Position numbers and translations under genes: made by a program. DNA of 64,000 bases from Dehalococcoidia bacterium (GTDB taxonomy: Bacteria; Chloroflexota; Dehalococcoidia; UBA2979). Below are positions 7,783 through 59,737 of this stretch, in pieces. The notes beneath the pieces are model-generated. The model was not told the DNA's origin and searched no databases. It worked only from the letters and a program-made list of their open reading frames with translations. Each line of letters begins with the position of its first letter. The first letter of the stretch is position 1. Location of the stretch: contig JBAYUZ010000001.1 of NCBI GenBank assembly GCA_041674885.1, positions 37,804 through 101,803 of the forward strand, read 5' to 3'.

Positions 7783-7798
7783 GCTCGGCCTCCTTCGG

Positions 7799-10846: not shown

Positions 10847-10983
10847 GGCGCCGCCTCCCCTGCTCGGGGATCACCGTAGCAACGGCGCGTTTCGCCCATA
10901 TTTCGAGGGGCGAAGAACGACGACTTCCGTGAAGCGTGCTCGTACGATGGTCGTATCCCAGGTGACTCGACGGAGCCACGAGG

Positions 10984-12141: not shown

Positions 12142-13453
12142 GCGCGCCGGCTCCCCTCGACGCTCGCCGGAAGGAGCCAGCCGCGAGCACCACCGTGACG
12201 GCGAGCCCCGCCGTGAACAGCAGCAGCGCCGCCGTCGGCCCCTGCACCGTCCACAGCACCCCGAACGCCACCGACGAGGCAAGCCGGGCGACCGCCGTGA
12301 CCGTGCCGAGGATCGACAGCCCGCTCGCGCGCTGCGCATCGGGGAGCGTCGCGCTCGCCGCTGCGGCCAGCACGCCGTCCGTGCTCGCGTAGAACGCGCC
12401 GAACAGCAGCAGCGTCAGCGCCACGGTGACGCCCGGCGTGGCGGCCAGCATCGATGGCGCCAGCAGCAGCACGCCGTACACCGCCAGCAGCACCATCTGC
12501 CCGCCCAGGAACGTGGGCACGCGCCCGATACGATCCGCAACACGCCCCAGCGGGATCGCGAGCAGGAAGTACGCGATCGACGTCCCCAGGAACAGCAGCG
12601 GGAAGTACGCCATCCCCACGTCCGTCGTGCGCTGCAGCACCAGGTAGACGAACGCATCGCTCAGCGTGAAGAACGCGACCATCCCGCCCGCGACGACCAC
12701 AGCGCGGAAGCCGCCCGCCTCGCGGAGCACGCGAAGGCTCTCCGCGAACGTCGGACGCCGCTTCGCAGCCGCGGGCTGCTGCGGGTTGCGCACGAACAGC
12801 GCGATGATCGCAACGCCGATCACCGCGAACGAGAGGCTCAGCACGAACACCGCATCGAACCGTCGAGGCGCGAGCGCCAGCACGGCGAACGCGAGGATCG
12901 GGCCCAGCATCGCGCCGACCGTATCGAGCGCACGGTGCAGGCCGAACGCCGCCCCCAGCGACTCATCTGATGCGGCGCGCGAGATGAGCGCGTCCCGGGG
13001 CGCCGTGCGGATGCCCTTCCCGAAGCGATCGACCGCGACCAACGCCATGAACGCGGTCGCGCCGGGCGTCAGGATCATCCCCAGTCGCGTGAGCATCGAC
13101 AGCGCGTACCCCGCGGCCGCGACCTCCTTCTGGCGATCGAGCCGATCCGCCAGGAACCCCGCCACCAGCCGGAACAACGCCGAGGCGCCCTGGTACAGCC
13201 CGTCGATGATCCCGAACTGCACCACGCTCGCCTGCTGCTGGAAGAGCAGGTAGATCGGCAGCACCGCCGTCACCATCTCAGACGAGACATCGGTGAACAT
13301 GCTCGTGAGGCCGAGCAGCAGCACGGTCGAACCGACGCGACCGTCACGCTTCCCGCCACGACCGAGCGTGATCCCGGCCAACCCCTCGCGGATCAGTCCG
13401 TACAACGGTTCCCCACCTCGAACGCGGCGCGCTCGGAGGATACCCCGGGCCAT
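12131..13453 (-). CDS. MFS transporter
   Basis: 12-TM major-facilitator-like hydrophobic pattern. Substrate unknown. Confidence 0.7.
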   Translation of the reverse strand: MARGILRARRVRGGEPLYGLIREGLAGITLGRGGKRDGRVGSTVLLLGLTSMFTDVSSEMVTAVLPIYLLFQQQASVVQFGIIDGLYQGASALFRLVAGFLADRLDRQKEVAAAGYALSMLTRLGMILTPGATAFMALVAVDRFGKGIRTAPRDALISRAASDESLGAAFGLHRALDTVGAMLGPILAFAVLALAPRRFDAVFVLSLSFAVIGVAIIALFVRNPQQPAAAKRRPTFAESLRVLREAGGFRAVVVAGGMVAFFTLSDAFVYLVLQRTTDVGMAYFPLLFLGTSIAYFLLAIPLGRVADRIGRVPTFLGGQMVLLAVYGVLLLAPSMLAATPGVTVALTLLLFGAFYASTDGVLAAAASATLPDAQRASGLSILGTVTAVARLASSVAFGVLWTVQGPTAALLLFTAGLAVTVVLAAGSFRRASRGAGAHAA

Positions 13454-22145: not shown

Positions 22146-22265
22146 TCCTCACCCACTCGCGCTCCGCGGAAGGTACCCAGAATCGTGAAGGCGAGGCCAT
22201 ACGACCCCTTATGCCACGCGTTATGATGCCGCCGATCCCGCCCCTGCACCTCGGAGGCTTCCACC

Positions 22266-24716
22266 ATGACCCGACCCTGCGACGACCTCCTCGTCCTCGA
22301 CCTCAGCAGCGGACGCGCGCCCGGCATCGCCACGATGGTGCTCGCCGACTTCGGCGCCGACGTCGTGAAGATCGAGCCGCCCGGCGGCGACCCCGAGCGC
22401 AGCGACCCCTCCTCGCCCATGTGGCTCCGAGGCAAGCGCAGCGTCGTCCTCGACCTCACCACCGCCGAGGGCCGTGCAGCGCTCCACCGCCTCGTGCCCG
22501 GCGCCGATGTCGTGGTCGCCTCGTACGCCCCCGGCGTCGCCGAGGCGCACGGCGCGGACTACGCGACGCTCTCCGCGCTCAACCCGCGCCTCGTCTACGC
22601 GTCGGTCACCGGCTGGGGCCCGCGCGGCGCCTACGCCGCCTACCCCGCCGACGAGTCGCTGGTCGCCGCGAAGTCCGGCCGCATGCGCGCGTTCGGCATG
22701 GTCGCCCGCAACGACGCCCCCGGCTTCACCGCCGTGCAGGTCGGCGTCCACGGCGCTGCGCAGTCGACGATCGCCGGCATCCTCGCAGCCCTCGAGGTGC
22801 GCGACCGCTCCGGCGTCGGCCAGCTCGTGGAGTCCAGCCTGCTGCAGGGCATGTTCCCGTTCGACTTCAACGGCCTGCCGCGCGAGCAGATGATCAAGAA
22901 GTTCCCCGACCGCGTGCAGAGCGACCTCTTCGCGCAGCTCACGAACCCGGACGGCATGTCCACGCTCGGCTACCAGCCCGTGCGCACGAAGGACGGCCAG
23001 TGGCTCCAGTTCGCGAACCTGCTGGAGCACCTGTTCCAGTCCTCGGTCGTCGCACTCGACCTCACCGGCGAGATCCTCGCGAACCCGGCCTACGAGGGCG
23101 CTCCGAACCGCCTCACCCCGGAGGCGCGCGAGGAGGTGCGGAACATGATGCTGCTCCGCGCCCGCGAGAAGACCGCCGCCGAGTGGATGGACCTGTTCAA
23201 GGAGAACGGCAACGTCGCCGCCGACTACGTGATGACCGCGCAGGACGCGCTGCATCACCCCGACATGCTCGCGAACGGCGACATCGCCGAGGTCACCGAC
23301 CCCAGCCTCGGCGTCGTACGCCAGCTCGGCCTGCTCGCGAAGCTGCGCGACACCCCCGGCGCGATCGAGCGTCCCGCCCCCGCCGTCGGCCAGCACACCG
23401 CCGAGGTGCTCGGCGCACCTGCGCGCGACCCCGGCGCTGTCGTCGCCCCCAACGGCGACGCGCGTGCCCCGCTCGCCGGCGTCACCGTCCTTGAGTTCGC
23501 GACGATCATCGCCGCGCCCTTCTCGTGCGCGCTGCTCGCCGACCTCGGCGCTCGCGTCATCAAGATCGAGCCGACCAACGGCGGCGACCCGATGCGCGGC
23601 ATGGGTGGCGCTGGCTTCAACTCCTACTTCGGCATCGCGAAGACGACCGCCGGCAAGGAGAGCATCTGCATCGACCTGAAGGATCCGGCCGGCCAGGAGA
23701 TCGTCCGCCGCCTGGTCGCGGACGCCGATGTCATCGTCCACAACTACCGGCAGGGTGTCCCGGAGCGCCTCGGCATCGGCTACGAGCAGGCGCGCCAGAT
23801 CCGCCCGGACATCATCTGGGTCAGCGTCAGCGGCTACGGCCCCGACGGCGACAGCGCGACGCGGCCCTGCGCCCACCCGATCCCCGGCGCCGTGAACGGC
23901 GGCGCGCTCATGCAGTGCGGCCACGGCTGGGAGCCCGAGAACATCGACACGCTCGAGGGGCTGCGCGAGGCATCGCGCCGCTTCTTCCGCGCGAACGAGG
24001 GCAACCCCGACCCGTGCACCTCGGTCGTCGCCACCTCCGCGACCATGCTCGCTCTCCGCGCGCGCACCCGGACGGGTCGAGGCCAGCAGGTGTTCGTCTC
24101 CATGCTGCAGGCGAACGGCTACGCGAACGCGGACGACTTCCTCTCCTACCCCGGCAAGACGCCGCGCCCGGAGATCGACGCCGAGGTCTTGGGCACCGGC
24201 CCGCTCCGCCGCCTCTACCGCGCCTCGGACGGCTGGGTCTGCCTGAGCCTGCCCACGCAGGCGCAGTGGCTCGCGTTCTGCGCCGCCTCGGGCGCAGCGC
24301 TGAGCGGAGACGCACGCTTCGCCACCGCCGAGGCGCGCGAGCAGCACCACGACGCCCTCGCCGAGGCGCTTGGCACGCACCTCGCCACCCGCACCGCCGA
24401 CGACTGGGAGCGCCTGCTCGCGCCGCAGGGCGTCGGCTGCGTGCGCGCGGACGGCGTGACCGGCGCGGGCGACTTCTTCCTCAACGACCCGCAGATCGAG
24501 GCGAACGGCTGGGCGAAGCTCGCCACGCACCCCGTGATGGGCGAGTACCGGCGCTGGGGCCCCGTGGTGACCTTCGAGGCCACCCCCGGCCGCTACGGCC
24601 CCGGCGTCCTCGCCGGCCAGCACACCGACCAGCTCCTGGCCGAGGTCGGCTACGAGCAGGCCGCGGTCGCCGACCTCTACGCGAAGGGCATCGTCTGGGC
24701 CGACCACCCGGAGTAG
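22266..24716 (+). CDS. Tandem-domain family III CoA-transferase (two fused CaiB/BaiF-like modules)
   Basis: An 816-aa protein. Both halves carry the CaiB/BaiF signature (DLSxxxAGP..., VVKIEPPGGDP / VIKIEPTNGGDP). Confidence 0.8.
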   Translation: MTRPCDDLLVLDLSSGRAPGIATMVLADFGADVVKIEPPGGDPERSDPSSPMWLRGKRSVVLDLTTAEGRAALHRLVPGADVVVASYAPGVAEAHGADYATLSALNPRLVYASVTGWGPRGAYAAYPADESLVAAKSGRMRAFGMVARNDAPGFTAVQVGVHGAAQSTIAGILAALEVRDRSGVGQLVESSLLQGMFPFDFNGLPREQMIKKFPDRVQSDLFAQLTNPDGMSTLGYQPVRTKDGQWLQFANLLEHLFQSSVVALDLTGEILANPAYEGAPNRLTPEAREEVRNMMLLRAREKTAAEWMDLFKENGNVAADYVMTAQDALHHPDMLANGDIAEVTDPSLGVVRQLGLLAKLRDTPGAIERPAPAVGQHTAEVLGAPARDPGAVVAPNGDARAPLAGVTVLEFATIIAAPFSCALLADLGARVIKIEPTNGGDPMRGMGGAGFNSYFGIAKTTAGKESICIDLKDPAGQEIVRRLVADADVIVHNYRQGVPERLGIGYEQARQIRPDIIWVSVSGYGPDGDSATRPCAHPIPGAVNGGALMQCGHGWEPENIDTLEGLREASRRFFRANEGNPDPCTSVVATSATMLALRARTRTGRGQQVFVSMLQANGYANADDFLSYPGKTPRPEIDAEVLGTGPLRRLYRASDGWVCLSLPTQAQWLAFCAASGAALSGDARFATAEAREQHHDALAEALGTHLATRTADDWERLLAPQGVGCVRADGVTGAGDFFLNDPQIEANGWAKLATHPVMGEYRRWGPVVTFEATPGRYGPGVLAGQHTDQLLAEVGYEQAAVADLYAKGIVWADHPE

Positions 24717-26613: not shown

Positions 26614-28239
26614 GTGCTCCAGGCGACATTCGATCAGCCGTCGCCGCTGTCGGCGCTTCCCGAGTGGCGCGCGCTCCGCGCGCACGCCGAAGCGATGCGC
26701 GGCGTCCGCATCCGCGACCTGCTCGACGCCGACCCCGAGCGCGCCACGCGCTACACACTCGACGCGGCGGGCCTCGGCCTCGACTACGCGCGCCACCGCG
26801 CGACCGACCAGACGCTGCGTCTGCTCCTCGCGCTCGCCCGGGCGCGCGGGCTGCGCACGCACATCGATGCGATGTTCCGCGGCGAGGTCGTGAACATCAG
26901 CGAGGATCGCCCGGCGCTCCACACCGCGCTCCGCGCCCCCCACTCCGCATCGGTGCTGGTCGACGGGCACGATGTCATCCCGGACGTGCATGCCGTGCTC
27001 GACCAGATGCGCGCGTTCGCCGGTCGCGTGCGCAGCGGCGAGTGGGCGGGCCACACCGGCCGCCCGATCCGCGCGATCGTCCACCTCGGCATCGGCGGCT
27101 CCGACCTCGGCCCGCGCATGGCGGTCGAGGCGCTCCGCAGCTACGCTGACCGCGCGCTCACCATCCGCTTCGTCGCCAACGCCGACCCCGCCGACCTCAC
27201 CGAGGCGCTGCGCGACCTCGATCCCGCAGAGACGCTGTGCATCGTCGCCTCCAAGTCGTTCACGACGCCGGAGACGATGGCGAACGCGCACGCCGCGCGC
27301 GCATGGCTCCTCGCCGCGCTCGGCGACCAGGCTGCCGTCGCGCGCCACTTCGTCGCCGTCTCGACCAACCTCGATGCCGTGGCACGCTTCGGAATCGACC
27401 CTACCAACGTGTTCACGTTCTGGGATTGGGTCGGCGGGCGCACCTCGCTCTGCTCGGCGATCGGCCTGCCGCTGATGCTCGCGATCGGCCCCGCCCACTT
27501 CGATGACCTGCTCGCCGGTGCGCACGCGATGGACGAGCACTTCCGCCGCGCCCCGTTCGACCGCAACATGCCGGCCCTCATGGGCCTCCTCGGCGTCTGG
27601 TACACCAGTCTCCTGGGGGCGGAGACGGTCTGCATCGTGCCGTACGAGCAATCGCTCGCCTCCTTCCCGGCCTACCTGCAGCAGCTCGCGATGGAGAGCA
27701 ACGGCAAGCGCACCGCCGCCGGTCGTCCCGTGCACGTCCCGACGGGCCCCATCGTCTGGGGCGCGGTCGGCACGAACGCGCAGCACTCGTTCTTCCAGCT
27801 GCTCCACCAGGGCACGCACATCGTCCCCGTCGACCTCATCGGCTTCGCCCGCGGCGAGTCGAACGAGGCGGATCGCGACGCGCATCGCGACCTGCTGCTC
27901 GCAAACCTCGTCGCGCAGGCCGAGGCGCTCGCCCGCGGCGACGACGCAGCCGAGGGTGACCGCCACGTCGCGGGCAACCAGCCGGTCTCCGTGCTGCTCG
28001 CGGATCGCCTCACCCCGCGCACCCTCGGCGCACTCGTCGCGCTGTACGAGCACGTCGTGTTCACGCAGGCGACGATCTGGGGCATCGACCCCTTCGACCA
28101 GTGGGGCGTCGAGCTCGGGAAGCGCATCGCCGCCGACGTGCTCCCTGCCCTCGCGGATGGTGCCGCGCCGCACCTCGACGCCAGCGCACGCGCGCTCATC
28201 GACCGCATCCGCGCGCTCCGCGGTCTACCACCGCACTGA
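26614..28239 (+). CDS. pgi: Glucose-6-phosphate isomerase
   Basis: Full-length PGI with conserved active-site regions. GTG start. Confidence 0.9.
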
Positions 28240-37829: not shown

Positions 37830-38891
37830 ATGGATCGCGCCGCCCGCCTGCACGCCCTCCACGACGCACTCCGCGAGCGCATCCTCGTGCTCGACGGCGC
37901 GTGGGGCAGCCTGATCCAGCGCTATGGGCTGGAGGACGCCGACTTCCGCGGCACCCGCTTCGCGAACTGGCCCGCCGACCTGAAGGGCAACCCCGACCTG
38001 CTCAACCTCACGCGCCCCGACATCGTGCGCGAGATCCACGACCGCTACATCGAGGCCGGGTGCGACATCACCTCGACCAACACGTTCACCTCCAACCGCA
38101 TCGCCCAGGCCGACTACCGCCTGGAGGACGTCGCGCAGGAGATGAACGAGGCCGGCGCGCGCATCGCCCGCGAGGCCGCCGATGCCGCGCAGGCGCGCGA
38201 CGGTCGCCTCCGCTGGGTCGCGGGCTCGATCGGCCCCACCAACCGCACCGCCTCGATCTCCCCGGACGTGAACGACCCCGGCGCGCGCAACGTGACCTTC
38301 GAGGACCTCCGCGCCGCCTACGCCGAGGCCGTGCGCGGCCTGATGGACGGCGGCGCCGACATCCTGCTCATCGAGACGATCACCGACACCCTGAACGCGA
38401 AGGCAGCCGTCTTCGCCGCCGAAGACGTGTTCGAGGAGCGTGGCGAGGAGGCGGCGATCATCCTGAGCGGCACGATCGTCGACCGTTCCGGCCGCACCCT
38501 CTCCGGGCAGACGCTGGAGGCGTTCTGGACCTCGCTCTCCCACGCCCGCCCGCTTGCGATCGGCCTCAACTGCGCGCTCGGCCCGCAGGAGCTGCGCGCG
38601 CACATCGCGGAGCTCGCGCGTATCGCCGACGTGCCCGTCGCCGCCTACCCCAACGCCGGCCTGCCGAACGAGTTCGGCGGCTACGACGAGACGCCGGAGC
38701 AGATGGCCGCCGCGCTCGGCGCGTGGGCCGGCGAGGGCATCGTGAACATCGTTGGCTCCTGCTGCGGCAGCACCCCGGAACACACGCGCGCGATCGTCGA
38801 GGCCGTGCGCGGCCTCCGGCCGCACGTCATCCCGGATCACCGCGCGACGATGCAGCTCGCGGGCCTCGAATCCGTCGAGATCGGCGCCTAG
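37830..38891 (+). CDS. metH: Methionine synthase MetH, homocysteine S-methyltransferase (Hcy-binding) domain, encoded as a separate ORF
   Basis: Hcy-binding domain with the zinc-ligand cysteines ([18 protein letters not shown]). Ends at a TAG at 38889-38891; the next ORF starts in frame at the adjacent ATG. Confidence 0.85.
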
Positions 38892-41570
<2,679 letters not shown>

Positions 41571-45076: not shown

Positions 45077-46492
45077 ATGGCGTTCCGACGCGACCTGACC
45101 TTCTTCGACGTGACGAACATCACCGTCGGCGCGATCGTCGGCGCAGACATCTACGTGGCATCCGCCATCACCGCCGGCTTGCTGGGGCCGGCCAGCATCC
45201 TCGCGTGGGTGGCCGCAGGCGTGCTCGCCACGATCCTCGCGCTCAACCTCGCCGAGTGCGCACGCCTCGTCCCCTCGGTCGGCGGGCCGTACGCCTACGT
45301 CTCCACGGCCTTCGGACGCTTCCCCGGCTTCCTGGCCGGCTGGTCGATGTGGATCGCGGAGCTCACCGCCCTCCCGGTGTTCGCGATCGCCTTCACGAAC
45401 TACCTCGGCGCATTCGCACAGCTCGGCGACGTCGAGACGCACGTGGTGCGCATCACGTTCCTGGCCGTCCTCACCGCGATCAACGTGTGGAGCGTGCGGA
45501 CGGCCGGCCGGGTGAACGACGCGCTCACGCTGCTGAAGCTTGCGCCGCTGCTGGTGATGGTTGTGGCCGGGTTCGGCTACGCCGCGCTCCACCCCGCCGA
45601 GGTCGTCGATCGCTTCACGCCGTTCGCGCCGTTCGGCTTCGCGCACTTCACGGAGTCGCTGGTGCTCATCGTCTGGGCGTACGCCGGCTTCGAGCTCTCG
45701 ACCGTCCCCGCAGGCGAGGTCGCGCACGCCGACCGCACGATCCCGCGCGCGCTCGCGGCCGGGATGGGCATCGTCACGCTCTTCTACCTCTCGACGAACC
45801 TCGTCGTGTACGCGCTGGTTCCCCACGAGGAGCTGGCGCGCAGCGCCGTCCCGCTCGCGGCAGCGGGCACCGTGCTGTTCGGTGGGCTGGGCGCCACGCT
45901 CATGTCTGCCGGCGCGATGGTCTCCGTCTCCGGCTCCGACGAGTCGGACATGCTCGGCTCCTCTCGCCTCGCATATGCGATGGCGGCGGATGGGCTGCTG
46001 CCACACCCGCTCGCCTCGCTGCACGCGCGCTTCGGAACGCCGTGGGTGGCGCTGATCGTGCAGAGCGCGATCGCCGCAGCACTCACCTTCGTCAACCGCA
46101 TCCCGACGCTGATCGGCTTCGCCGTGGTGAACCTCGCGCTCTCGTTCCTGCTGTGCGCGCTCGCGCTGCTCGTGCTGCGGCGCCGTGACCACGCGCAGCA
46201 CTCGCTGCCACGCCGAGGACTGCCGGTGCTGGGCGTGCTGGTCGCAGGCGGGCTCCTGCTCGCGTCCTCGCCCTCACAGCAGCTGACCGGCGCGGCGGTG
46301 ATCGCCGTGGGCACCGCGATCTACTGGCTGGCGCCACGCCGCACGCTCCCCCACGCGATCGAGCCGATGCTCGACCCGGAGCGCGTGCTCGCGCGGCTCG
46401 CGCGCCGACGCATGCGCTTCCTCGGCGGCCTCGTCGGGTGGTTTGGCGGGCATCGCACGCCCGCACGCTCACGCAGGAGGCGGTCGGTGTAG
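45077..46492 (+). CDS. APC-superfamily amino-acid permease
   Basis: 12-TM APC pattern. Start at MAFRRDLTFFDVTNITVG with AGAGG 6 nt upstream. Confidence 0.8.
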   Translation: MAFRRDLTFFDVTNITVGAIVGADIYVASAITAGLLGPASILAWVAAGVLATILALNLAECARLVPSVGGPYAYVSTAFGRFPGFLAGWSMWIAELTALPVFAIAFTNYLGAFAQLGDVETHVVRITFLAVLTAINVWSVRTAGRVNDALTLLKLAPLLVMVVAGFGYAALHPAEVVDRFTPFAPFGFAHFTESLVLIVWAYAGFELSTVPAGEVAHADRTIPRALAAGMGIVTLFYLSTNLVVYALVPHEELARSAVPLAAAGTVLFGGLGATLMSAGAMVSVSGSDESDMLGSSRLAYAMAADGLLPHPLASLHARFGTPWVALIVQSAIAAALTFVNRIPTLIGFAVVNLALSFLLCALALLVLRRRDHAQHSLPRRGLPVLGVLVAGGLLLASSPSQQLTGAAVIAVGTAIYWLAPRRTLPHAIEPMLDPERVLARLARRRMRFLGGLVGWFGGHRTPARSRRRRSV

Positions 46493-46548
46493 GATGCGGC
46501 TCTCCCCGCTCGCCTCGGCCGCACGGCCGCGCGCGAAGGAGCACGCCG

Positions 46549-47745
46549 ATGCCCGCGCTGGACGGCATGCGCGTCCTCGATATGACGCAGTACGAGGCCG
46601 GCACCTCCTGCACCCAGTGGCTCGCCTGGTTGGGTGCGGACGTGGTGAAGATCGAGTCGCCCAGCGGCGACCCCGGCCGAGGCGTCGCCACCGGCACCGA
46701 CCCGACGCAGTACTTCCTCAACTACAACGGCAACAAGCGCGGCATCGTCCTGAACCTCAAGCGCCCGCGCGGCCGCGAGGTGCTGCTCGACCTGGTCGAG
46801 CGGTTCGATGTGTTCGTCGAGAACTACGGCCCCGGCGTGATCGAGGCGTTCGACCTCGGCTACGAGGTGCTGCGCGACCGCAACCCCGGCCTCATCTACG
46901 GACGCATCAAGGGCTTCGGCCTCAGCGGGCCGTACGCGGGCTACAACTCCTACGACTGGGTGGCGCAGGCGGCGGCGGGCACGTTCTCCGTGACCGGCTC
47001 CCCGGACGGCCCGCCGATGCACCCCGGCCCGACGTTCGCGGACAGCGGCGCGGGCATGCAGATGGCGCTGGCGATCACCGCCGCCTACGTCCAGCGCCAG
47101 CGCACCGGCGAGGGCCAGCTGATCGAGGTGTCGATGCAGGAGGCGGTGACGGCGTTCACGCGCACGCTGGGCCTGCGCACCTGGGGCACCGAGCCCGCGC
47201 CGCGGCAGGGCATCGACCAGGGCAACCCGCCGACCTCGACCTACCCGTGCAAGGGCGGCGGGCCAAACGACTGGGCGTTCATCATGGTCACCACCACCCA
47301 GATGTGGGACGCGCTCTGCGGCGCCCTCGGCCACGCCGAGTGGGCGCTCGACCCGCGCTTCGCCACCGCCGAGGCGCGCGCGGCGCACCGCGCCGAGCTG
47401 TACGAGGGCATCGCCGCCTGGACCCGTGAGCGCACGAAGTTCGAGGTGATGGGCGTGCTCGGCCCGGCGGGCGTGCCGTGCAGCGCGGTGTTCGACACCG
47501 TGGACGTGTTCCGTGACCCGCACCTGCAGGCGCGCGGCTTCGTGCAGACGCTGGAGCACCCCTCGGTCGGGCCGGTAACGCTGCTCGGGAATCCGCTGCG
47601 CATGTCGGGCTCGCAGGTGCCGCAGCGCCTCGCGCCCGCGCTCGGCGCGCACACGCGCGAGGTGCTGCGCGACGACCTCGGCCTGGACGAGGCGGCGATC
47701 GCGGCGCTCTGTGCCGATGGCGCCATCGTCGCCCGCGAGCCGTGA
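46549..47745 (+). CDS. Family III CoA-transferase (CaiB/BaiF; formyl-CoA transferase-like)
   Basis: MRVLDMTQYEAGTSCTQWLAWLGADVVKIESPSGDP is a CaiB/Frc-type N-terminus. AAGGAG RBS. Confidence 0.8.
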   Translation: MPALDGMRVLDMTQYEAGTSCTQWLAWLGADVVKIESPSGDPGRGVATGTDPTQYFLNYNGNKRGIVLNLKRPRGREVLLDLVERFDVFVENYGPGVIEAFDLGYEVLRDRNPGLIYGRIKGFGLSGPYAGYNSYDWVAQAAAGTFSVTGSPDGPPMHPGPTFADSGAGMQMALAITAAYVQRQRTGEGQLIEVSMQEAVTAFTRTLGLRTWGTEPAPRQGIDQGNPPTSTYPCKGGGPNDWAFIMVTTTQMWDALCGALGHAEWALDPRFATAEARAAHRAELYEGIAAWTRERTKFEVMGVLGPAGVPCSAVFDTVDVFRDPHLQARGFVQTLEHPSVGPVTLLGNPLRMSGSQVPQRLAPALGAHTREVLRDDLGLDEAAIAALCADGAIVAREP

Positions 47746-47758
47746 CGCGCGAGGCGCG

Positions 47759-48751
47759 CTAGGCGCCCGCCCCAGCCGCCGAGGGAATGCGCGCCTCCGC
47801 GAAGTACTCCCGCGCCAGCGCTCGCACGCTCTCGATGTCGGGGAGCTGGAAGACCTGCGCCCGGAGCGCGCGAGAGTTGTCGCGCCCCGCCATGTAGTGG
47901 CCCAGGTGCTTCTTCATCTGCACCAGCGCCGGGTGCGGCGGGATGCGCTCCTCGATCAGGTCGAGGTGGCGCCAGACGACACGCTCGCGGTAGGCGGCCT
48001 GCGCGTCGGCATCGAGCGCCTCGTACGCCTCGTCGAAGATCCACGGCTTGCCCATCGCGCCGCGGCCGACCATCACGGAGACACAGCCGGTCTCCGCGAT
48101 CATCCGCCGCGCCTCGTCCAGCGAGGTCACGTCGCCGTTGCCGGTGACGGGGATGTCGACCGCGCGCACGACGTCGCCGATGAGATCCCACGGCGCGCGG
48201 CCCCCGAAGCGCATCATCCGCGTCCGAGGATGCACCGTGATCGCGTCGACGCCGACGTCCTGCGCCATGCGCGCGACCTCGACGGCGTTCAACTCGTGGT
48301 CGTTCCAGCCGCCGCGAATCTTGATCGTGAGCGGGACATCGACGGCGGCACGCAGCGCCGAGAGCAGCGTCGCGGTCGAGGCGATATCGCGCATGAGCGC
48401 CGCGCCCTTGCCCTGCCGCACGATCTTCGGCACCGGGCAGCCCATGTTGAGGTCGATGATCTCCGCGCCCGCCTCGACCAGCTCGATCGCGGCGGGGACG
48501 AGCGTCTCCACGCGGTTGCCGAGGAGCTGCATCGCGACGATGCCCTCGGCGGGGTCGCGCTCCATCATCAGCTCGGTGCGCGCGCTGTTGCGGTTGCGCA
48601 CCAGCGCCTCGGCGTCGATCTCCTCGTTCGTCACGAAGCCGGAGCCGCACTCGACGGCGATCAGGCGGAACGGCAGGTTCGTGTACGCCGCCATCGGCGC
48701 GAGGCGCGCGGGGCGGGCAGCAAGGAGGGCACGCAGGTCGGCTCGGTTCAT
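47759..48751 (-). CDS. dus: tRNA-dihydrouridine synthase
   Basis: Dus family (MAAYTNLPFR..., NMGCPVPKI...). Start at MNRADLRAL. Confidence 0.8.
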   Translation of the reverse strand: MNRADLRALLAARPARLAPMAAYTNLPFRLIAVECGSGFVTNEEIDAEALVRNRNSARTELMMERDPAEGIVAMQLLGNRVETLVPAAIELVEAGAEIIDLNMGCPVPKIVRQGKGAALMRDIASTATLLSALRAAVDVPLTIKIRGGWNDHELNAVEVARMAQDVGVDAITVHPRTRMMRFGGRAPWDLIGDVVRAVDIPVTGNGDVTSLDEARRMIAETGCVSVMVGRGAMGKPWIFDEAYEALDADAQAAYRERVVWRHLDLIEERIPPHPALVQMKKHLGHYMAGRDNSRALRAQVFQLPDIESVRALAREYFAEARIPSAAGAGA

Positions 48752-48793
48752 GCGTAGGATTATCGCAGCCCGCCCGCCGATGAGGATGCCGCC

Positions 48794-49567
48794 ATGCCAA
48801 CCTCGCCTTCCTCGACCGCGCCGTTCACGCTGATCGCCCATCGCGGCTACTCCGACCTGGCGCCGGAGAACACGCTGGCGGCGTTCGACCTCGCGCTGGA
48901 GCGGGGGTACGCGCACCTGGAGCTGGACGTGCAGCTCACGAGCGACGGCGTGCCGGTGGTCATCCACGACGGCCGCCTCGACCGCACCACGGACGGGACG
49001 GGGCTGCTGCGCCAGCACACGTTCGAGCAGGTGCGCGCGCTCTCGGCAGGCGCGCGCTTCGGCGACGACCCGGCACGGTTCGCGACCGAGCGCGTGCCGA
49101 GCCTCGACGAGGTGCTGACGCGCACCGCCGGTCGGGCACGGCTGCACCTGGAGCTGAAGTCGACGGAGCAGGAGCTCGCCGCCGTCGTAGTCGGGGCGCT
49201 CCGCGAGCATGGGTGGGACGCCTCGACCGGCCCGGACGAGGTGCCGGGGCTGACGCTGACCTCGTTCCACGTGGAGCAGCTGCACCGCTCACGGCGGCTG
49301 CTGCCGGCGGTGCCGCACGGCTGGCTGCTCACACGCATCACCAAGGACGACCTCGACCTCTGCCGCACGCTCGGGCTCGCCGAGATCTGCCCGCGCGCCG
49401 ACACGCTCACGCGCGAAGCGGTCGAGGCGGCCTCAGCAGCCGACCTGCGGGTGCGCGCGTGGGGCGTGCGCAACGAGGATGACCTGCGCACCGCTGCCGC
49501 GAGCGGTGCGTGGGGCACGACGGTGAACTGGCCGGAGCGCGCCCGCGCAGCCCTCGACGCGCGTTAG
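48794..49567 (+). CDS. Glycerophosphodiester phosphodiesterase
   Basis: GDPD family (IAHRGYS...ENT..ELD). Confidence 0.8.
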   Translation: MPTSPSSTAPFTLIAHRGYSDLAPENTLAAFDLALERGYAHLELDVQLTSDGVPVVIHDGRLDRTTDGTGLLRQHTFEQVRALSAGARFGDDPARFATERVPSLDEVLTRTAGRARLHLELKSTEQELAAVVVGALREHGWDASTGPDEVPGLTLTSFHVEQLHRSRRLLPAVPHGWLLTRITKDDLDLCRTLGLAEICPRADTLTREAVEAASAADLRVRAWGVRNEDDLRTAAASGAWGTTVNWPERARAALDAR

Positions 49568-49576
49568 CCGACACGC

Positions 49577-49606
49577 GATGTTTCACGCCGTTTCACGTGA
49601 AACATC
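49577..49606. terminator. Perfect 11-bp stem-loop between convergent genes (GDPD and LOG). Putative bidirectional terminator
   Basis: gatgtttcacg-ccgtttca-cgtgaaacatc. It is the only clearly AT-richer patch in this part of the window. No U-tract follows. Confidence 0.4.
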
Positions 49607-49633
49607 ACTCCGCGTGCCAGTGCGGGGTTGCAG

Positions 49634-50416
49634 CTACTCGAACAGCCACCAGCGGCGACGCGGGCGCACCTCGGGCGGGGGCGGGCCGTAGGTCATGCCG
49701 AAGCGCGTGACCGCCGCCTCGCGGATCGCGCGGGTCGCCTCCTCGATGCTGTCGGTGAAGAGCAAACGGTCGGCGTCGCGCTGCGTGATCGTGCCCTCCG
49801 GGATCAGGCGGTCGCGGATGAGCGCGCGCATCGGCTCCCAGTACTCAGTGCCGAGGAAGACGACGGGGAAGTCGCGGATCTTGCCGGTCTGCACGAGCGT
49901 CGCCGCCTCGAACGCTTCATCGAGCGTGCCGAAGCCGCCCGGCAGCACGACGAACGCGTACGAGTACTTCACCAGCATGACCTTGCGCACGAAGAAGTGC
50001 TGGAACTCGATCCACGTGTCGAGGTAGACGTTCGGCGCCTGCTCCGTGGGGAGCGTGATGTTGCAGCCGATGGAGCGACCACCGGCCTCCTTCGCACCGC
50101 GGTTCGCAGCCTCCATCAGCCCGGGGCCGCCACCGGTCATGACCGTGAAGCCCAGGTTCGCCATCGCCGCGCCCGCCTCGCGTGCCAGCGCGTAGTACGG
50201 GTGCGCCTCGCGGTAGCGTGCGGAGCCGAACACCGTCACGCACGGCCCAACGAAGTGGAGCGTGCGGAAGCCGCGAATGAACTCGATGAAGACGCGCACC
50301 GCCCACGACAGCTCCGAGAAACGCTGCTGTGGGCCGGAGAAGAACAGCCGCTCCGGAACGCGCCCATTGCCGTTCTCCGGCGCGGCCGGGGGCGGGTCGG
50401 GAATCTGCAGAACCAT
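49634..50416 (-). CDS. LOG-family protein (cytokinin riboside 5'-monophosphate phosphoribohydrolase-like, TIGR00730)
   Basis: GGGPGLMEA and PGGFGTLDE motifs. Confidence 0.8.
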   Translation of the reverse strand: MVLQIPDPPPAAPENGNGRVPERLFFSGPQQRFSELSWAVRVFIEFIRGFRTLHFVGPCVTVFGSARYREAHPYYALAREAGAAMANLGFTVMTGGGPGLMEAANRGAKEAGGRSIGCNITLPTEQAPNVYLDTWIEFQHFFVRKVMLVKYSYAFVVLPGGFGTLDEAFEAATLVQTGKIRDFPVVFLGTEYWEPMRALIRDRLIPEGTITQRDADRLLFTDSIEEATRAIREAAVTRFGMTYGPPPPEVRPRRRWWLFE

Positions 50417-50561
50417 CGCGGCCTCCTGAGCGGCGGGTGCGGGCGCGTCATTCCACGGTGTCGTGCGGGCGGTGCGCGGTCAATCGGTATGCCGCACCGG
50501 AGCCTGAGGCGATACTGCAACCAAGCCTCGTGCGTGCGCGCACGCGGGCGAGGAGGCATGC

Positions 50562-51959
50562 ATGGCAACGCTGCAGTTCGCGGGAGCGGCGGGGAACGTC
50601 ACCGGCTCCCAGTACATCCTGGAAGTCGGCGGCCTGCGGCTGCTGATCGACTGCGGGATGCACCAGGAACGCGATTTCGCGGGACGCAACTGGGAGCCGT
50701 TCGCGGTGCCACCCGAGAACATCGACGCGGTGCTGCTGACACACGCGCACCTCGACCACAGCGGCCTGCTGCCGAAGCTCGTGCGGGACGGCTTTCGCGG
50801 ACCGATCTACTGCACGCCCGCGACCGCCGACGTCACCAACATCCTGCTGCTGGACGCGGGTCGCATCCAGGAGGAGGACGCCGCCTTCAAGCGCCGCCGT
50901 CACCAGCGCGAGGGACGACGCGGGCGCAACGACGACCGGCCGCTCTACACCGCTCGCGACGCGCGGAAGGTGAGCCAGTACTTCGTCCCCACGCCGTACC
51001 ACCAGATCCTGAAGCTGGCGGACGACGTGACCGTGCAGTTCCGCGACGCGGGCCACGTCCTGGGCTCGGCGACCGTCGAGGTGCGGTGGGGCGGCCGCGA
51101 CGGGCGCAGCATCGTGTTCTCGGGCGACATCGGGCGGCCGGGGATGCCGCTGCTGCGCGACCCGGAGGCCATGCCGCCGACCGACTTCGTGGTGGTGGAG
51201 TCCACCTACGGCGACCGCGAGCACGAAGACCTCGATGGCATCGAGGAGGAGTTCGCGGGGATCATCAACGACACGGTCGACGCGGGCGGGAACATCGTGA
51301 TCCCCGCGTTCGCGCTGGAGCGCGCGCAGGAGGTGCTGTACTACCTGAAGCGGCTGCGCGACCAGCGGCGCATCCCGGCGCTGCGCACCTTCGTCGACAG
51401 CCCCATGGCGACCTCGATCACGCAGCTGTTCCGGCACCACGTCTACGAGCTGGACGAGGAGGCGCAGCGCGAGTTCCGCGGGCGCCACTCGCCGTTCGAC
51501 TTCCCAGGGCTGACGTACGTGCGCGGGATCGAGGAGTCGAAGTCGCTGAACCAGATTCGCGGCTCCTCGATCATCATCGCGGGCGCGGGGATGTGTAACG
51601 GCGGGCGGATCAAGCACCACCTGGTGACGAACATCGGCCGGCGCGAGAGCACGATCCTGTTCGTGGGCTACCAGGCGGAGGGGACGCTGGGGCGGCACAT
51701 CGTCGACGGCGACAACCCGGTGCGCATCCTGGGCGAGAACCACGACGTCGCGGCGCGCATCGCGCAGATGGAGGCGTTCTCCGCACACGCCGATCGGAGC
51801 GAGCTGGAGGCGTGGCTGCTCAACGTACAGCCGCCTCCCCGGCAGGCGTTCATCGTCCACGGCGAGGAGCACGCATCGCACTCGCTGGCGGCGCTGATGC
51901 GCGGGCACGGGATGGACGCAGTCGTCGCGCAGTACGACGAGCGCATCGAGCTCGGCTGA
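50562..51959 (+). CDS. MBL-fold beta-CASP family RNA-metabolising hydrolase
   Basis: HAHLDHSG metallo-beta-lactamase motif followed by beta-CASP and RNA-specificity-like regions. Confidence 0.8.
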   Translation: MATLQFAGAAGNVTGSQYILEVGGLRLLIDCGMHQERDFAGRNWEPFAVPPENIDAVLLTHAHLDHSGLLPKLVRDGFRGPIYCTPATADVTNILLLDAGRIQEEDAAFKRRRHQREGRRGRNDDRPLYTARDARKVSQYFVPTPYHQILKLADDVTVQFRDAGHVLGSATVEVRWGGRDGRSIVFSGDIGRPGMPLLRDPEAMPPTDFVVVESTYGDREHEDLDGIEEEFAGIINDTVDAGGNIVIPAFALERAQEVLYYLKRLRDQRRIPALRTFVDSPMATSITQLFRHHVYELDEEAQREFRGRHSPFDFPGLTYVRGIEESKSLNQIRGSSIIIAGAGMCNGGRIKHHLVTNIGRRESTILFVGYQAEGTLGRHIVDGDNPVRILGENHDVAARIAQMEAFSAHADRSELEAWLLNVQPPPRQAFIVHGEEHASHSLAALMRGHGMDAVVAQYDERIELG

Positions 51960-51991
51960 GCCGCAGGCGCAGCAGCGAGTACGATCGAGGC

Positions 51992-52507
51992 ATGCCGGAC
52001 GCTATCGACCCCACATCAGCCTCGGCGGTGCCGCCGCTGCGCTTCGTGACGCTCGCGCAGGCGCGCGCGCTGGAGTGCAACGGCTGCGGCGACTGCTGCG
52101 ACACGCGGCGCACCGACGGCTACTGGGCGTGGAGCGCACTGCCGGAGGACGGCTTCGCCTCGATGACCGGCGGGGAGCCGCTGATCATCCCGATCGAGCG
52201 CATCGAGGGCGGCGACGGCTGGCGCGACCGCGCGTGGCAGCCGGACGACGCCTCGGAGTTCCTGCCGACGCTCTTCCGCTGCTCCGCGTTCCGCGAGCAG
52301 GAGGACGGGCGCGGGCTGTGCGGTCGGCACACGCTGGAGCGCCCGAGCGTCTGCGCGGAGTTCCCGGTGCACGTGATCGGCCTCGACCGTGACGTGGCGG
52401 AGCTGGGCGAGGTGCCGCTGCTGACGGGCGCGCTGCCGCGCTGCACGTGGTATCGCATGACGGTCGTGCGCGACGACGATCCTCGAGTGGAGGCCAGCGA
52501 TGGGTGA
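51992..52507 (+). CDS. YkgJ-family CxxCxxCC cysteine-cluster protein
   Basis: CNGCGDCC motif. The start is uncertain. Confidence 0.55.
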   Translation: MPDAIDPTSASAVPPLRFVTLAQARALECNGCGDCCDTRRTDGYWAWSALPEDGFASMTGGEPLIIPIERIEGGDGWRDRAWQPDDASEFLPTLFRCSAFREQEDGRGLCGRHTLERPSVCAEFPVHVIGLDRDVAELGEVPLLTGALPRCTWYRMTVVRDDDPRVEASDG

Positions 52508-52865: not shown

Positions 52866-53413
52866 CGCCAGTCCCAGCGCACGACCGGCGCGTTGCGCGC
52901 GCCCACCTTCGCGGGGGCATCGGCGCGCGGCAGACCGATGTTCACGAGCGAGACCACCTGCTCCCCCGGCGCGAGACCGAGGTGCGTGCGGGTCGCCTCG
53001 TACGTCAGGATGCCGCCGGTGCTGAGGTGCGCCGCCAGGCCCTCGGCGTGGGCGGCGAGCAGCAGGTTCTGCAGCGCGCACCAGCAGGCGGCGTAGTCCT
53101 CGCGCTCACGCTCAGCGGTGTCGGCGGCGATCTGCGTGACGAACAGCGCGACGGGCGCGCGCAGCAGCTTGGAGCGCGCGGAGGTGCCGATGCCCTCGGG
53201 CATGGCGTTCGCGGCGGCCCATGCGGCGATCGCGTCGGCGATGGCGTCGCGGCCGGTGCCCGCGAGCACGTGGAAGCGCCACGGCTCGGTGTGGCGGTGG
53301 TTCGGCGCCCAGGTCGCGGCATCGAGGAGTCGTTCGATCACTTCGCGTGACGGCGCTTCCGGCGCGGATGCCTCCAGATCGCGGCGGCCCCGGATCGCCT
53401 CGTACAGCTCCAT
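52862..53413 (-). CDS. Nitroreductase-family protein
   Basis: Nitroreductase fold similarity. Start at MELYEAIRGRRD. Confidence 0.7.
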   Translation of the reverse strand: MELYEAIRGRRDLEASAPEAPSREVIERLLDAATWAPNHRHTEPWRFHVLAGTGRDAIADAIAAWAAANAMPEGIGTSARSKLLRAPVALFVTQIAADTAEREREDYAACWCALQNLLLAAHAEGLAAHLSTGGILTYEATRTHLGLAPGEQVVSLVNIGLPRADAPAKVGARNAPVVRWDWR

Positions 53414-53504
53414 CGCGCACCCCCTCGAAGGCACCGTAGCGCATCGGACGGCGGGCGGTGGCTGATTCGGCTACCATCACGGCCGTCGTAGCAAGGAGTC
53501 TGCC

Positions 53505-53867
53505 ATGCCCGAGCCAGTCGTCCACGTCGCCGGCCCCACGTTGGAGCGATTCGAGGAGGTGCTGACGCCGGAAGCGCTGCGGTTCCTGGGGCTGCTGGAG
53601 TCGACGTTCGGGGCGCGGCGGCGGGAGCTGCTGGCGGCGCGCGCGGTGCGGCAGGCCGCGATCTCGGCGGGCGCAAACCTCGACTTCCTGCCGGAGACGG
53701 CGGCGGTGCGCGCGGGTGACTGGAAGGTCGTGCCGCCCGCGCCGGGGCTCGAGGATCGGCGCGTCGAGATCACGGGGCCGACCGAGCAGCGGATGACGAT
53801 CAACGCGCTCAACTCCGGCGCGCGCGTCTGGCTCGCGGACTTCGAGGATGCGAACGCGCCGTTCTGA
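53505..53867 (+). CDS. aceB: Malate synthase A, N-terminal 120 aa, ending at an in-frame TGA that sits where the family's conserved Trp should be
   Basis: Collinear with the E. coli AceB N-terminus (DRRVEITGP...ADFED). The stop aligns with the W of the family's conserved PDW. Confidence 0.6.
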   Translation: MPEPVVHVAGPTLERFEEVLTPEALRFLGLLESTFGARRRELLAARAVRQAAISAGANLDFLPETAAVRAGDWKVVPPAPGLEDRRVEITGPTEQRMTINALNSGARVWLADFEDANAPF

Positions 53868-53873
53868 GAGAAC

Positions 53874-55082
53874 ATGGTGCGCGGCCACCTGCACCTCATG
53901 GACGCCCTCGACCGCACGATCGACTTCACGACGGCCGAGGGTCGCGCCTACGCGCTGCGGCCGGACGCGGAGCTCGCGACGATCGTCGTGCGGCCTCGCG
54001 GGTGGCACCTCGTGGAGAAGCACCTGCTGGTGGACGGCGCGCCGATATCGGCCTCGCTGTTCGACTTCGCGCTGTACTTCCTCCACTGCGCGCAGCGGCA
54101 GATCGCGAAGGGCAAGGGGCCGTACTTCTACCTGCCGAAGATGGAGAGCCACCTCGAAGCCCGGCTCTGGAACGACGTGTTCAACCTCGCGCAGGACACG
54201 CTCGGCATCCCGCGCGGCACGATCCGCGCGACCGTGCTGATCGAGACGTACCCGGCAGCGTTCGAGATGGAGGAGATCCTCTACGAGCTGCGGGAGCACA
54301 GCGCGGGCCTCAATGCCGGGCGGTGGGACTTCATCTTCAGCCTGATCAAGAAGCTGCGGACGCGCGGGCGCGACTTCGTGCTGCCGGATCGGAACACGGT
54401 GACGATGACGGTGCCGTTCATGCGCGCGTACACGGAGCTGCTGGTCGCGACCTGCCACAAGCGCGGCGCACACGCGATCGGCGGGATGTCGGCGTTCATC
54501 CCGAACCGTCGCGACCCGGAGGTGAACGACGCGGCGCTGGAGCGCGTGCGCGCCGACAAGCGGCGCGAGGCAGGCGATGGCTTCGACGGATCGTGGGTGG
54601 CGCACCCCGACCTCGTCTCGATCTGCTTCGAGGAGTTCGACGCGGTGCTGGGGGCGCGGCCCAACCAGCTCGACCGGCTGCGCGACGACGTGCGCATCAC
54701 GGCGGCGGACATCCTCTCGGTCGCCGCGACACCGGGCGCGGTCACCGAGGCGGGCGTGCGCAACGACGTCTCGGTCGGGGTGCAGTACCTGCAGGCGTGG
54801 CTCGGCGGGCTGGGCGCGGTGGCGATCTTCAACCTCATGGAGGACGCCGCGACGGCCGAGATCGCGCGGTCGCAGGTGTGGCAGTGGATCCACAACGGCG
54901 TGACGCTGGAGGACGGCACGGCGATCACCGCCGACCTCGTCCGCCGCATGCTGGACGAGGAGATCGCGAAGCTGGGCGACGCCGCGACGTACGCCGACGC
55001 GCGGCGGCTGTTCGAGCAGGTGGCGCTGGCGGACGACTTCGAGGAGTTCTTAACGATTCCCGCGTACGATCACATCCCGTAG
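53874..55082 (+). CDS. aceB: Malate synthase A, remaining ~400 aa. Same reading frame as 53505..53867
   Basis: Collinear with E. coli AceB from about residue 125 to the end, including catalytic regions. The first in-frame ATG is at 53874. Confidence 0.75.
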
Positions 55083-55122: not shown

Positions 55123-56517
55123 TTGAGCACGGACAGCGCCCCCAACGCCTCGACGGTGTGCCCCTACTGCGGCCACGCCGTGGCCTCGACTGCGAAGATC
55201 TGCGGGACGTGCCTGCGATCGATCGAGGGTGGGCAGGCAGACCGCGGCGGCCTGGCGGCACGCGAGGTGGCGTACCGCGCAGGGCAGCGACGACGGCGCA
55301 TCCGCCTCGCGTCGATCGCGGCGGGGAGCGTGGCGCTGGTCGCGGCGTTCATCTGGGTGCAGTGGTTCATGCCGGTGACCCCGCTCCCGCTGCCCTCCAC
55401 GCCCGCGCGGACGCTGGTGCCCCCGACCGAGGACGCGAGCCGCTGGCCATCCGTCGCGGGGAACGCGCAGCTGCAGCGCACGACCTCGGCACGTCCCGAC
55501 CTTGCGGCGCCAGAGCGCTGGCGCGTCACCACCAGCGAGCGGATCACCACGCCGCCGGTCGTTGATGAGCAGCGCGTGTACCTCGGCATCGCGGGCGCGC
55601 TCCTGGCGTTCGCGCGCGAGGACGGGCGCGAGGTGTGGCGCATTCCGATCGGTGGGCAACTGGACGCCGCGCCGACGGTCGTGGGCGACCGGGTGTACGT
55701 GACGCTGCGCGAAGGCAGCGTGCTGGCGCTCAACGCGGCGGACGGGAAGCAGCTGTGGAAGGGCGGCGACGGGCCGACCTACTTCTCCTCGGTCGTCGTC
55801 GACCGCGGCGTGGTGTTCGGGTCGGCGCTGGGGCGGCTGACCGGGCTGGACGCGGAGACCGGCACGGTGCTGTGGCGGCAGGACACCGACAACCGGGTGA
55901 GCGCGCAGGCGCAGCCAGCGGTGACACCGGCGCACGTGCTGCAGCTCTCCTACCGGCGCGCGCTCCTGTTCGACCGCGCCACCGGTGAGCAGCTGTTCTA
56001 CTACTCGATGCCGAGCCCGGAGCACGTGGCGGTCGAGGGCAGCCGGGGGTTCATCGTCGGTTCTGATCGCATCGTGGCGTTCGGCTTCGACCAGCGGCGG
56101 CCGTGGTGGGAGTTCTGGCGCACGGCGTGGGGGCAGTTGTGGATCTTCGGCATGGCGCCGGCGCCGCCACCGCAGCCTCGGCACTGGGTGCAGCCGACGG
56201 AGCGCGGAACGCTCGCGCCGACGATCGCCGACGGGGCGCTGATCACGGCGAGCACGACCGGCGGTGTGCGCGCGCTCGACCTCGCGAGCGGCGAGGTGCG
56301 GTGGGAGGCGAAGGTCGGCCCGGTCGCCTCGGCGCCGGTCACGACCGCGGCGGGTGTGCTGCTGGTGCAGCGCGACGCCCTGCTGCTGCTCGACCCGGCG
56401 ACCGGCACCGAGGTCGCGAAGCGGCCGATGCGTGACGCGGGGCTGCGCTCGGCAGCCGTGACCTCGGCGGGGACGTACCTGGTGGCGGGCGACTCCGGGC
56501 TGATCGCGCTGCGCTAG
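55123..56517 (+). CDS. Zinc-ribbon / TM / PQQ-like beta-propeller repeat protein (BamB-like)
   Basis: TTG start with GAGAGGA 7 nt upstream. N-terminal CPYCGH...CGTC zinc ribbon, one TM helix, then PQQ-type repeats. Confidence 0.65.
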   Translation: MSTDSAPNASTVCPYCGHAVASTAKICGTCLRSIEGGQADRGGLAAREVAYRAGQRRRRIRLASIAAGSVALVAAFIWVQWFMPVTPLPLPSTPARTLVPPTEDASRWPSVAGNAQLQRTTSARPDLAAPERWRVTTSERITTPPVVDEQRVYLGIAGALLAFAREDGREVWRIPIGGQLDAAPTVVGDRVYVTLREGSVLALNAADGKQLWKGGDGPTYFSSVVVDRGVVFGSALGRLTGLDAETGTVLWRQDTDNRVSAQAQPAVTPAHVLQLSYRRALLFDRATGEQLFYYSMPSPEHVAVEGSRGFIVGSDRIVAFGFDQRRPWWEFWRTAWGQLWIFGMAPAPPPQPRHWVQPTERGTLAPTIADGALITASTTGGVRALDLASGEVRWEAKVGPVASAPVTTAAGVLLVQRDALLLLDPATGTEVAKRPMRDAGLRSAAVTSAGTYLVAGDSGLIALR

Positions 56518-56649
56518 CGCGCCGTTGCGCCTCGCAGCCCGTGGCGCAACGTTATGTCGCAATCACGTTCAGGGGTGACGTAGAGCGCGATAACTGTGTA
56601 CGCTGATTCGCGCAGTCGCGCTCTTGGCGGGGTGAGACAGCAGGGACGT

Positions 56650-58626: not shown

Positions 58627-59556
58627 CTAGAACGGCAGCTCGACTCCGATGCCCTGCTCGCGCGCCTTCTTGAGGATGTAGGCGCTGGCGGCAGCATCTT
58701 CGATGCCGATGCCCTGGCTCTCGAACAGCGTGATCGCGTCGTCCGAGGGGCGGCCGGGGACGTGGCCGCTCACCACCTGGTGCAGCTCGACGGCCTGTCC
58801 CCAGCGGAAGGCGCCGCGCTCGGCGGCCCAGATGAGCTCGCCGCACTCGATCTTCGCCTGCTCCATGTTGTCGACCGCGATCAGGGCCGAGCGGCGGATC
58901 GTCGTCTCATCGATCTCGCGCTTCTGCCATGAGTTGGAGCCGGCGGCGACGACGAGCGTGCCGGGATCGAGGTCGTTGCCATCGAAGACCGGCTCACGCG
59001 CGGTCGTGATCGCAACGACGATGTCGGAGTCGGCGACGCACTCCTGCGCGCTGCCGACCGGGACGACCTCGATGCGCAGGCGCTCCTCGGTCTTCGCAGC
59101 GAAGGCCGTGCGGCGGTCGGCGTCACGGGAGTAGACCTTCACCTTCGACACGGGGCGGACGGCGCAGATCGCCTCGATCTGCGTCTCGGCCTGGCGGCCG
59201 GTGCCGATCACGCCGACGGTCGAGGCGTCCTCGCGCGACATGTACTTCGCGGCGACGCCGCTGGCGGCGCCGGTGCGGATCCAGGCGAGCGTGCCGGGCT
59301 CGATCACGGCGTCGAGCGCGCCGGTCTCGGTGTTGTAGAGCAGCGTGGCGGTGGAGTGGCGCACGGCGTGGGCGTGGGAGCCGAGGACGGTGCCGCCCAT
59401 CAGCGTGGTGCCGCCCTGCTCAAAGCGGATGCGGCGTCTCGGCAGGTTCTCGACGAGGCCGCGCGCCTCCTGTCGGAAGAGATCGTCGAGGACAGGCACG
59501 CACTCGGCGACGGTGATCAGGCGCTGCACGTCCTGGTTGCTGATGAACAGGGCCAT
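58627..59556 (-). CDS. Ornithine cyclodeaminase / mu-crystallin family protein
   Basis: OCD family similarity. Start at MALFISNQD with GAGGAGG upstream. Confidence 0.8.
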   Translation of the reverse strand: MALFISNQDVQRLITVAECVPVLDDLFRQEARGLVENLPRRRIRFEQGGTTLMGGTVLGSHAHAVRHSTATLLYNTETGALDAVIEPGTLAWIRTGAASGVAAKYMSREDASTVGVIGTGRQAETQIEAICAVRPVSKVKVYSRDADRRTAFAAKTEERLRIEVVPVGSAQECVADSDIVVAITTAREPVFDGNDLDPGTLVVAAGSNSWQKREIDETTIRRSALIAVDNMEQAKIECGELIWAAERGAFRWGQAVELHQVVSGHVPGRPSDDAITLFESQGIGIEDAAASAYILKKAREQGIGVELPF

Positions 59557-59737
59557 CCGAAGCCTCCTCGATGTTCGCGTGCGTGCGAGTGTCGGGCGCA
59601 CGGGCGAGGCTCGCAAACGCGGCGGGATATCCGGCCTCCCCCTGTGCCTCGATGCCACCGATGTCGACGCTGGATCGGAGACGTGAAGGGCGCGCGCGCC
59701 CTATCGTGGACGGGCGCGCCAGCACACAGGAGGAAGC

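Follow-up and report, generated by a model that had tools for sequence, protein, structure and literature searches.

An in-frame TGA at a conserved tryptophan codon of a malate synthase A gene in a Dehalococcoidia bacterium

A stop codon that interrupts an otherwise well-preserved enzyme gene raises the question of whether it reflects a mistake in the sequence, a special way of reading the codon or a mutation of the gene. Such a codon, a TGA, is found in the aceB-type malate synthase A frame of the stretch of DNA analysed here as a whole (64,000 nucleotides, referred to as the window). The original prediction had placed it on a Trp codon and had left open a recent nonsense mutation, a sequencing or assembly error and low-level readthrough. 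Our results favour the mutation: with a probability of about 85%, a young G-to-A transition (TGG to TGA), restricted to one very narrow lineage, has left malate synthase A null or strongly reduced, the stop being a mutation and not a programmed signal.

Architecture of the malate synthase A frame

The features of the locus, together with those of the split metH gene considered below, are listed in Table 1.

Table 1. Positions of the malate synthase A features and of metH in the window
Feature	Positions	Strand	Remark
aceB-type malate synthase A frame	53505..55082	+	525 codons plus TAG, one interruption (codon 121)
Premature TGA replacing TGG (Trp), codon 121	53865..53867	+	from the sequence and the TGG of relatives
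N-terminal ORF, 120 aa	53505..53867	+	product expected from RF2 termination at the TGA
C-terminal ORF, 402 aa	53874..55082	+	ATG is the ancestral Met124; same frame as the N-terminal ORF
AAGGAG, Shine-Dalgarno-like	53493..53498	+	6-base spacing to ATG 53505
metH, cobalamin-dependent methionine synthase, as two abutting same-frame ORFs	37830-41570	+	

The codons surrounding the stop read GAC TTC GAG GAT GCG AAC GCG CCG TTC TGA GAG AAC ATG GTG CGC GGC CAC. The TGA is codon 121 when counting starts with the ATG at 53505, and the frame is then stop-free until the TAG at 55080-55082. When a W is placed at the stop, the joined product is 525 aa long and is matched end to end by the Pfam domains of malate synthase A, MS_N, MS_TIM-barrel and MS_C (PF20656+PF01274+PF20659). 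The joined translation reaches 786.9 bits against the NCBIfam equivalog profile of malate synthase A, TIGR01344 (curated cut-off of 594.5 bits), over profile positions 1-510 out of 511, and it can be aligned from end to end with the malate synthase A of B. anthracis (3CUX; 1e-178) and with E. coli AceB (3CUZ; 5e-160). The two ORFs are thus, as had been predicted, in one frame and collinear with malate synthase A. The three-domain architecture over the full length is what the window gene has in common with malate synthase A (3CUZ, 3CUX, TIGR01344), from which it differs by a frame broken at codon 121, which leaves one fragment of 120 aa and, at best, another of 402 aa.

In the alignments with PDB sequences, the window segment 'edanapfwenmvrgh' is found opposite 'edslapdwnkvidgq', the TGA taking the position of the Trp in the DFEDxxxPxW motif (FEDSxxPxW in the crystal-structure alignments). 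The predicted location of the stop on a conserved Trp is therefore in agreement with the alignments to both the E. coli and the B. anthracis enzymes. By numbering offset (residue 12 of H. volcanii MSH being residue 91 of E. coli MSA), this Trp probably corresponds, although tentatively, to Trp46 of H. volcanii MSH, which hydrogen-bonds to a Ser contacting the adenine of acetyl-CoA. Further downstream, the MEDAATAEI segment with the catalytic Asp is conserved in the window protein when aligned with E. coli MSA, in which the catalytic base, Asp447, is located in the C-terminal domain (PMC3112382).

The strength of this Trp conservation was assessed on 160 homologous loci. The aligned codon is TGG in 79 of the 80 species-genome loci among the matches listed, the last one having TTT, and likewise in 79 of the 80 metagenome loci, where the exception is TTC. 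When the two sets are pooled, the codon specifies Trp in 158/160 loci and Phe in 2/160 among the matches listed, and a stop is present at this codon in none of the 160 loci listed. The original description of the Trp as universally conserved is thus slightly overstated: it holds for the 158 Trp loci and fails for the two Phe ones.

When the two ORFs are considered separately, the N-terminal one covers profile positions 1-101 only of TIGR01344, and the C-terminal one alone covers positions 106-510 with 625 bits, which exceeds the 594.5 cut-off. Owing to the TGA at codon 121, the window gene does not encode an uninterrupted polypeptide of about 530 residues. As far as can be read from its sequence, it is a disrupted aceB allele and not a standard functional member of malate synthase A. 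A scan for promoters and terminators around the gene returned none.

Reality and age of the TGA

As the TGA is a single-base difference in DNA of metagenome-assembly source, it could in principle result from a sequencing or assembly error, the true base being G (TGG). Other records were retrieved by exact look-up of the two ORF products. The product of the 402-aa ORF is also found on ENA contig ERZ27247358:k141_2175477 (24 kb), and that of the 120-aa ORF on this same contig and on Logan contig SRR6484325_1130048. Both products are recorded at JGI/IMG too (probably from the window's own contig), and the 120-aa ORF is called as a separate gene in the JGI, ENA and Logan records. The ENA (L001/L002) and Logan (L003) sequences have a TGA identical to that of the window. 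The window differs from the ENA stretch at 8/7209 positions and from the Logan contig at 2/2428, none of them within the malate synthase gene. The window, ENA megahit k141 and Logan consensuses were thus built independently and, since they differ elsewhere and yet carry the same TGA from three pipelines, an assembly or sequencing error is very unlikely, contrary to what the original prediction had allowed for. The three assemblies, which may come from the same or related samples, exclude an assembler artefact and give no measure of the spread of the allele across populations.

Of the eight positions at which the ENA stretch departs from the window, six are grouped in about 310 bp (51960-52272), in a hypothetical ORF without Pfam match, and only two are located in the other 6.9 kb. 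This cluster could be a recombination patch or a place where strains vary locally.

A metagenome contig collection was also searched with the exact DNA pattern GCGCCGTTCTGRGAGAACATGGTGCG, which covers both alleles, and gave 0 matches; when this collection was scanned at the protein level, no relative above 72% identity was obtained. Both results together indicate that this collection lacks the lineage of the window.

To find close relatives, the 402-aa ORF was compared with 5.8 billion proteins and the best 120 matches were examined. Among these, the nearest relatives display 98, 97, 96, 92, 85, 85 and 84% aa identity, and these seven proteins are 525-526 aa long with W121, in the context NAPFWENMV or APFWENLV. 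The best 120 matches contain no other 402-aa form with MVRGH at its start. Two shorter cluster mates of the 402-aa ORF (P0008 and P0250) were considered and set aside, as they are ended by contig edges and are uninformative on the stop. The window gene is collinear with, and equal in length to, the intact 525-aa relatives P0001-P0004. At the DNA level, codon 121 is TGG in all four relatives analysed (L084-L087), whose gene of 1578 nt is terminated by TAG and shares 86-94% nucleotide identity with the window gene.

The genomic context is also shared. In L085-L087, as in the window, the malate synthase gene is preceded by a nitroreductase gene of opposite orientation and followed by a PQQ-repeat gene; L084 has the PQQ-repeat gene only, its contig stopping shortly before the start of the malate synthase gene. 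The lesion is thus absent from close orthologs in the same context (L084-L087, with both flanks in L085-L087), as is expected of a pseudogene. Finally, all sequences with the TGA are at least 99.9% identical to the window, and Trp is found in relatives at 84-98%. The ancestral codon is therefore TGG, and one G-to-A transition explains the stop. These results (TGG at codon 121 of close orthologs, intact genes, a shared neighbourhood where flanks are present and a single G-to-A change) support the recent nonsense mutation that the original prediction had offered as one of three readings.

Two other differences were observed in this neighbourhood. A sortase gene lies between the PQQ-repeat gene and an SH3-domain gene in L085 (6159-6746) and L087 (9660-10256), and is absent from the window (56517-56596) and from L086. 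In L086, which encodes P0003, the gene for ornithine cyclodeaminase/mu-crystallin has been annotated in two parts of 174 and 135 aa (11357-12285); both the window (58627-59700) and another relative (309 aa) have it uninterrupted. The split call in L086 could be either another lineage-specific disruption or an assembly error.

To estimate how long the gene has been interrupted, its substitution pattern was analysed. Pairwise dN/dS is 0.065-0.127 between the window gene and its relatives, and 0.060-0.133 among the intact relatives. Besides the nonsense change, 7 missense and 11 synonymous changes are specific to the window. Seven missense or fewer out of 18 changes is far fewer than expected under neutrality, with 74% of non-synonymous sites (P=0.0015), and the missense/synonymous ratio does not differ between the window and the pooled sister branches (Fisher P=0.39). 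The window gene contains no frameshift and no decay beyond the TGA, and GC3 past the stop stays at 0.96. Neither relaxed selection nor further degradation, which are expected only in old pseudogenes, is thus detected. The low dN/dS, together with the lack of frameshifts, indicates that purifying selection acted normally on the gene during most of the period after the split from its nearest sequenced relatives. A young stop and a gene that is still selected would fit the substitution data equally well. The recent nonsense mutation originally proposed agrees with the TGG of close relatives and with the otherwise undamaged reading frame.

The lesion resembles an ordinary young nonsense allele in all respects: one G:C-to-A:T transition, intact relatives, conserved synteny and no further degradation. 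The one difference is that the mutated codon is a Trp codon, so that background misreading of UGA regenerates the wild-type protein. The malate synthase lesion is a real but ordinary nonsense allele.

Reading of the TGA and alternative explanations

According to the nonsense-allele explanation, translation from ATG 53505 would be ended by RF2 at UGA121, and a 120-residue fragment would be released. This fragment would comprise the N-terminal clasp and about 30 residues of the TIM barrel, whose first strand begins with residue 91 of the E. coli enzyme (PMC3112382). Given this start and the location of Asp447 in the C-terminal domain, the fragment could not be catalytic. To make the 402-aa product, which would miss the first strands of the barrel, ribosomes would have to terminate and then re-initiate at ATG 53874, six bases past the stop. 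Misreading of UGA121 by Trp-tRNA(Trp) would put back the ancestral residue and thereby give the wild-type enzyme. The mutation most likely results in a null or strongly hypomorphic aceB allele.

The use of TGA in the rest of the window was then analysed on segments with a coding signature (GC3 above 0.82, GC1 well above GC2). The 42 segments retained end with TAG (22), TGA (19, about 45%) or TAA (1). In a genome of 71% GC, TGA normally dominates, so that a share of about one half for TAG is unusual. Pfam domains extend up to 14 residues or less before the TGA in PGI, G6PD, a beta-CASP nuclease, UreA, an ABC ATPase and a permease. PGI is terminated by the TGA at 28237-28239 and is followed, in the same frame, by G6PD, a separate complete gene. 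The same-frame neighbours GGDEF/PAPS-reductase and PGI/G6PD were considered as candidate stop interruptions and rejected, both pairs consisting of separate complete genes. A Pfam screen of about 40 further coding segments of the window detected no comparable interruption, and every one of the nine remaining Trp codons in the malate synthase gene is TGG. The window contains no tRNA gene. The 100 nt around and after the TGA fold no better than shuffled sequences (z=-0.81), and a permissive Rfam scan of 53400-54300 gave chance-level matches only and no SECIS.

These data leave hardly any room for an altered code (UGA = Trp, code 4) or for selenocysteine at codon 121, even though the TGA falls precisely on a Trp position, the very feature that the window has in common with UGA-to-Trp reassignment or suppression systems. 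Code 4 is found in Mycoplasmatales and some endosymbionts. In contrast to reassignment, the window offers a single instance, in a high-GC genome that is free-living in type, of a stop that is not common to relatives, and TGA is otherwise a terminator that ends many complete genes, PGI among them; frequent in-frame TGAs, as in a UGA-reassigned code (4/25), are not found, nine of the ten Trp positions of the gene itself being TGG. As for selenocysteine, the UGA is followed by neither a hairpin nor a SECIS family on its 3' side, and the homologs have Trp or Phe, never Cys or Sec. Another possibility is that Trp is inserted at UGA121 often enough to be useful, by near-cognate tRNA-Trp(CCA), by a variant with a 4-bp anticodon stem or by an opal suppressor, and that aceB is still used. 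This is unlikely, but deserves consideration, as decoding by tRNA-Trp restores the exact ancestral protein and as UGA readthrough in E. coli is governed by the competition between RF2 and Trp-tRNA(Trp), its main competitor (PMC10570021). In addition, bacterial tRNA-Trp with a 4-bp stem and suppressor tRNAs reading in-frame UGA are known, suppressors being carried by 0.3% of standard-code genomes (PMC13092985). The otherwise perfect frame and a dN/dS of about 0.1 are equally expected from continued function; the branch specific to the window is, however, too short to tell a young stop from a selected one. Moreover, no relative at 84-98% aa identity has the stop, so that programmed readthrough, with a stop conserved among relatives and constraint beyond it, is not what is observed here, no stimulatory structure follows the stop, about 45% of the window genes are terminated by TGA and none of the roughly 40 other segments has a further in-frame TGA. 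From the sequence, low-level readthrough of UGA would be plausible only as ordinary background leakiness, with no sign of programming.

It could also be imagined that the 120-aa and 402-aa fragments, the latter made by reinitiation at ATG 53874, assemble into an active malate synthase. The position of this ATG, six bases past the stop, and the presence in the window of one naturally split enzyme, MetH, would be in favour of such a split enzyme, which we nevertheless regard as highly improbable. ATG 53874 simply encodes the ancestral Met124, part of an ENM motif that is conserved among relatives and present in the intact ones, and the sequence upstream of this ATG (CGTTCTGAGAGAACATG) contains no Shine-Dalgarno of its own. 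Furthermore, the cut falls within the TIM barrel, about 30 residues past the start of its first strand, and removes W121-N123. Finally, this architecture is found in no relative among the best 120 matches, whereas the split of metH is widely conserved. The first ORF of metH encodes the Hcy S-methyltransferase domain (353 aa) and is terminated by the TAG at 38889-38891; the second one, encoding the pterin-binding, B12 and activation part (892 aa), starts with the ATG at 38892, directly after this TAG. The best 120 homologs of the Hcy-methyltransferase ORF (60-97% identity) are nearly all stand-alone proteins of about 335-370 aa, and range from Chloroflexota to Alphaproteobacteria. The TAG of metH was considered as a second suppressed stop, which would have indicated genome-wide stop suppression, and was rejected as such, the split being natural and widely conserved.

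Consequences of the allele and surroundings of the gene

With a nonsense mutation as the explanation, a narrow population of an uncultured bacterium is probably devoid of malate synthase A, or strongly reduced in it, which is of small biological importance. The 402-aa ORF is more of a concern for annotation: as it scores above the TIGR01344 cut-off, pipelines will credit this bacterium with a working malate synthase and a glyoxylate shunt, which it probably lacks. More generally, Trp-to-UGA is the sole class of nonsense mutations in which background misreading gives the wild-type protein, and 'pseudogene' calls at such codons may hide leaky hypomorphs. If UGA121 were read at a useful rate, the allele would be 'self-correcting' and would act as a strong translational attenuator of a glyoxylate-shunt enzyme, and not as a knockout.

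The origin of the gene itself was also considered. Among the matches listed, the named genomes closest to the window malate synthase A are those of Actinomycetota such as Thermoactinospora and Nonomuraea, at 74-76% identity, and a scan of genome contigs with malate synthase gave homologs at 74% identity or less, all from Actinomycetota among the matches listed. In contrast to these nearest named sequences (at most 76% among the matches listed), the host of the window appears to belong to a Chloroflexota lineage. As aceB is nearest to Actinomycetota among the matches listed while the host is probably a high-GC member of Chloroflexota, these results suggest that aceB was acquired by an old horizontal transfer.

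Several other features of the window were observed. The GC skew switches from negative to positive across about 46000-52000, with a cumulative minimum near 48-50 kb, a pattern of replication origin; no dnaA gene is present near the switch, and no DnaA box of the TTATCCACA type (with at most 1 mismatch) is found anywhere in the window. A frame of 829 codons at 22227-24716 (+) contains two tandem family III CoA-transferase domains (PF02515, two stretches, 522 bits), and a single-domain paralog of this family is located at 46189-47745. On the minus strand, 2080-10870 encodes an ABC transporter of the urea/branched-chain type (ATPase, permease and periplasmic binding protein) together with urease genes (ureG-like, ureC and ureA). 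In the whole window, a single Rfam match exceeds the gathering score: 5_ureB_sRNA, at 9744-10031 (+) with 65 bits, antisense to ureC; it may result from nothing more than conservation of the urease coding sequence.
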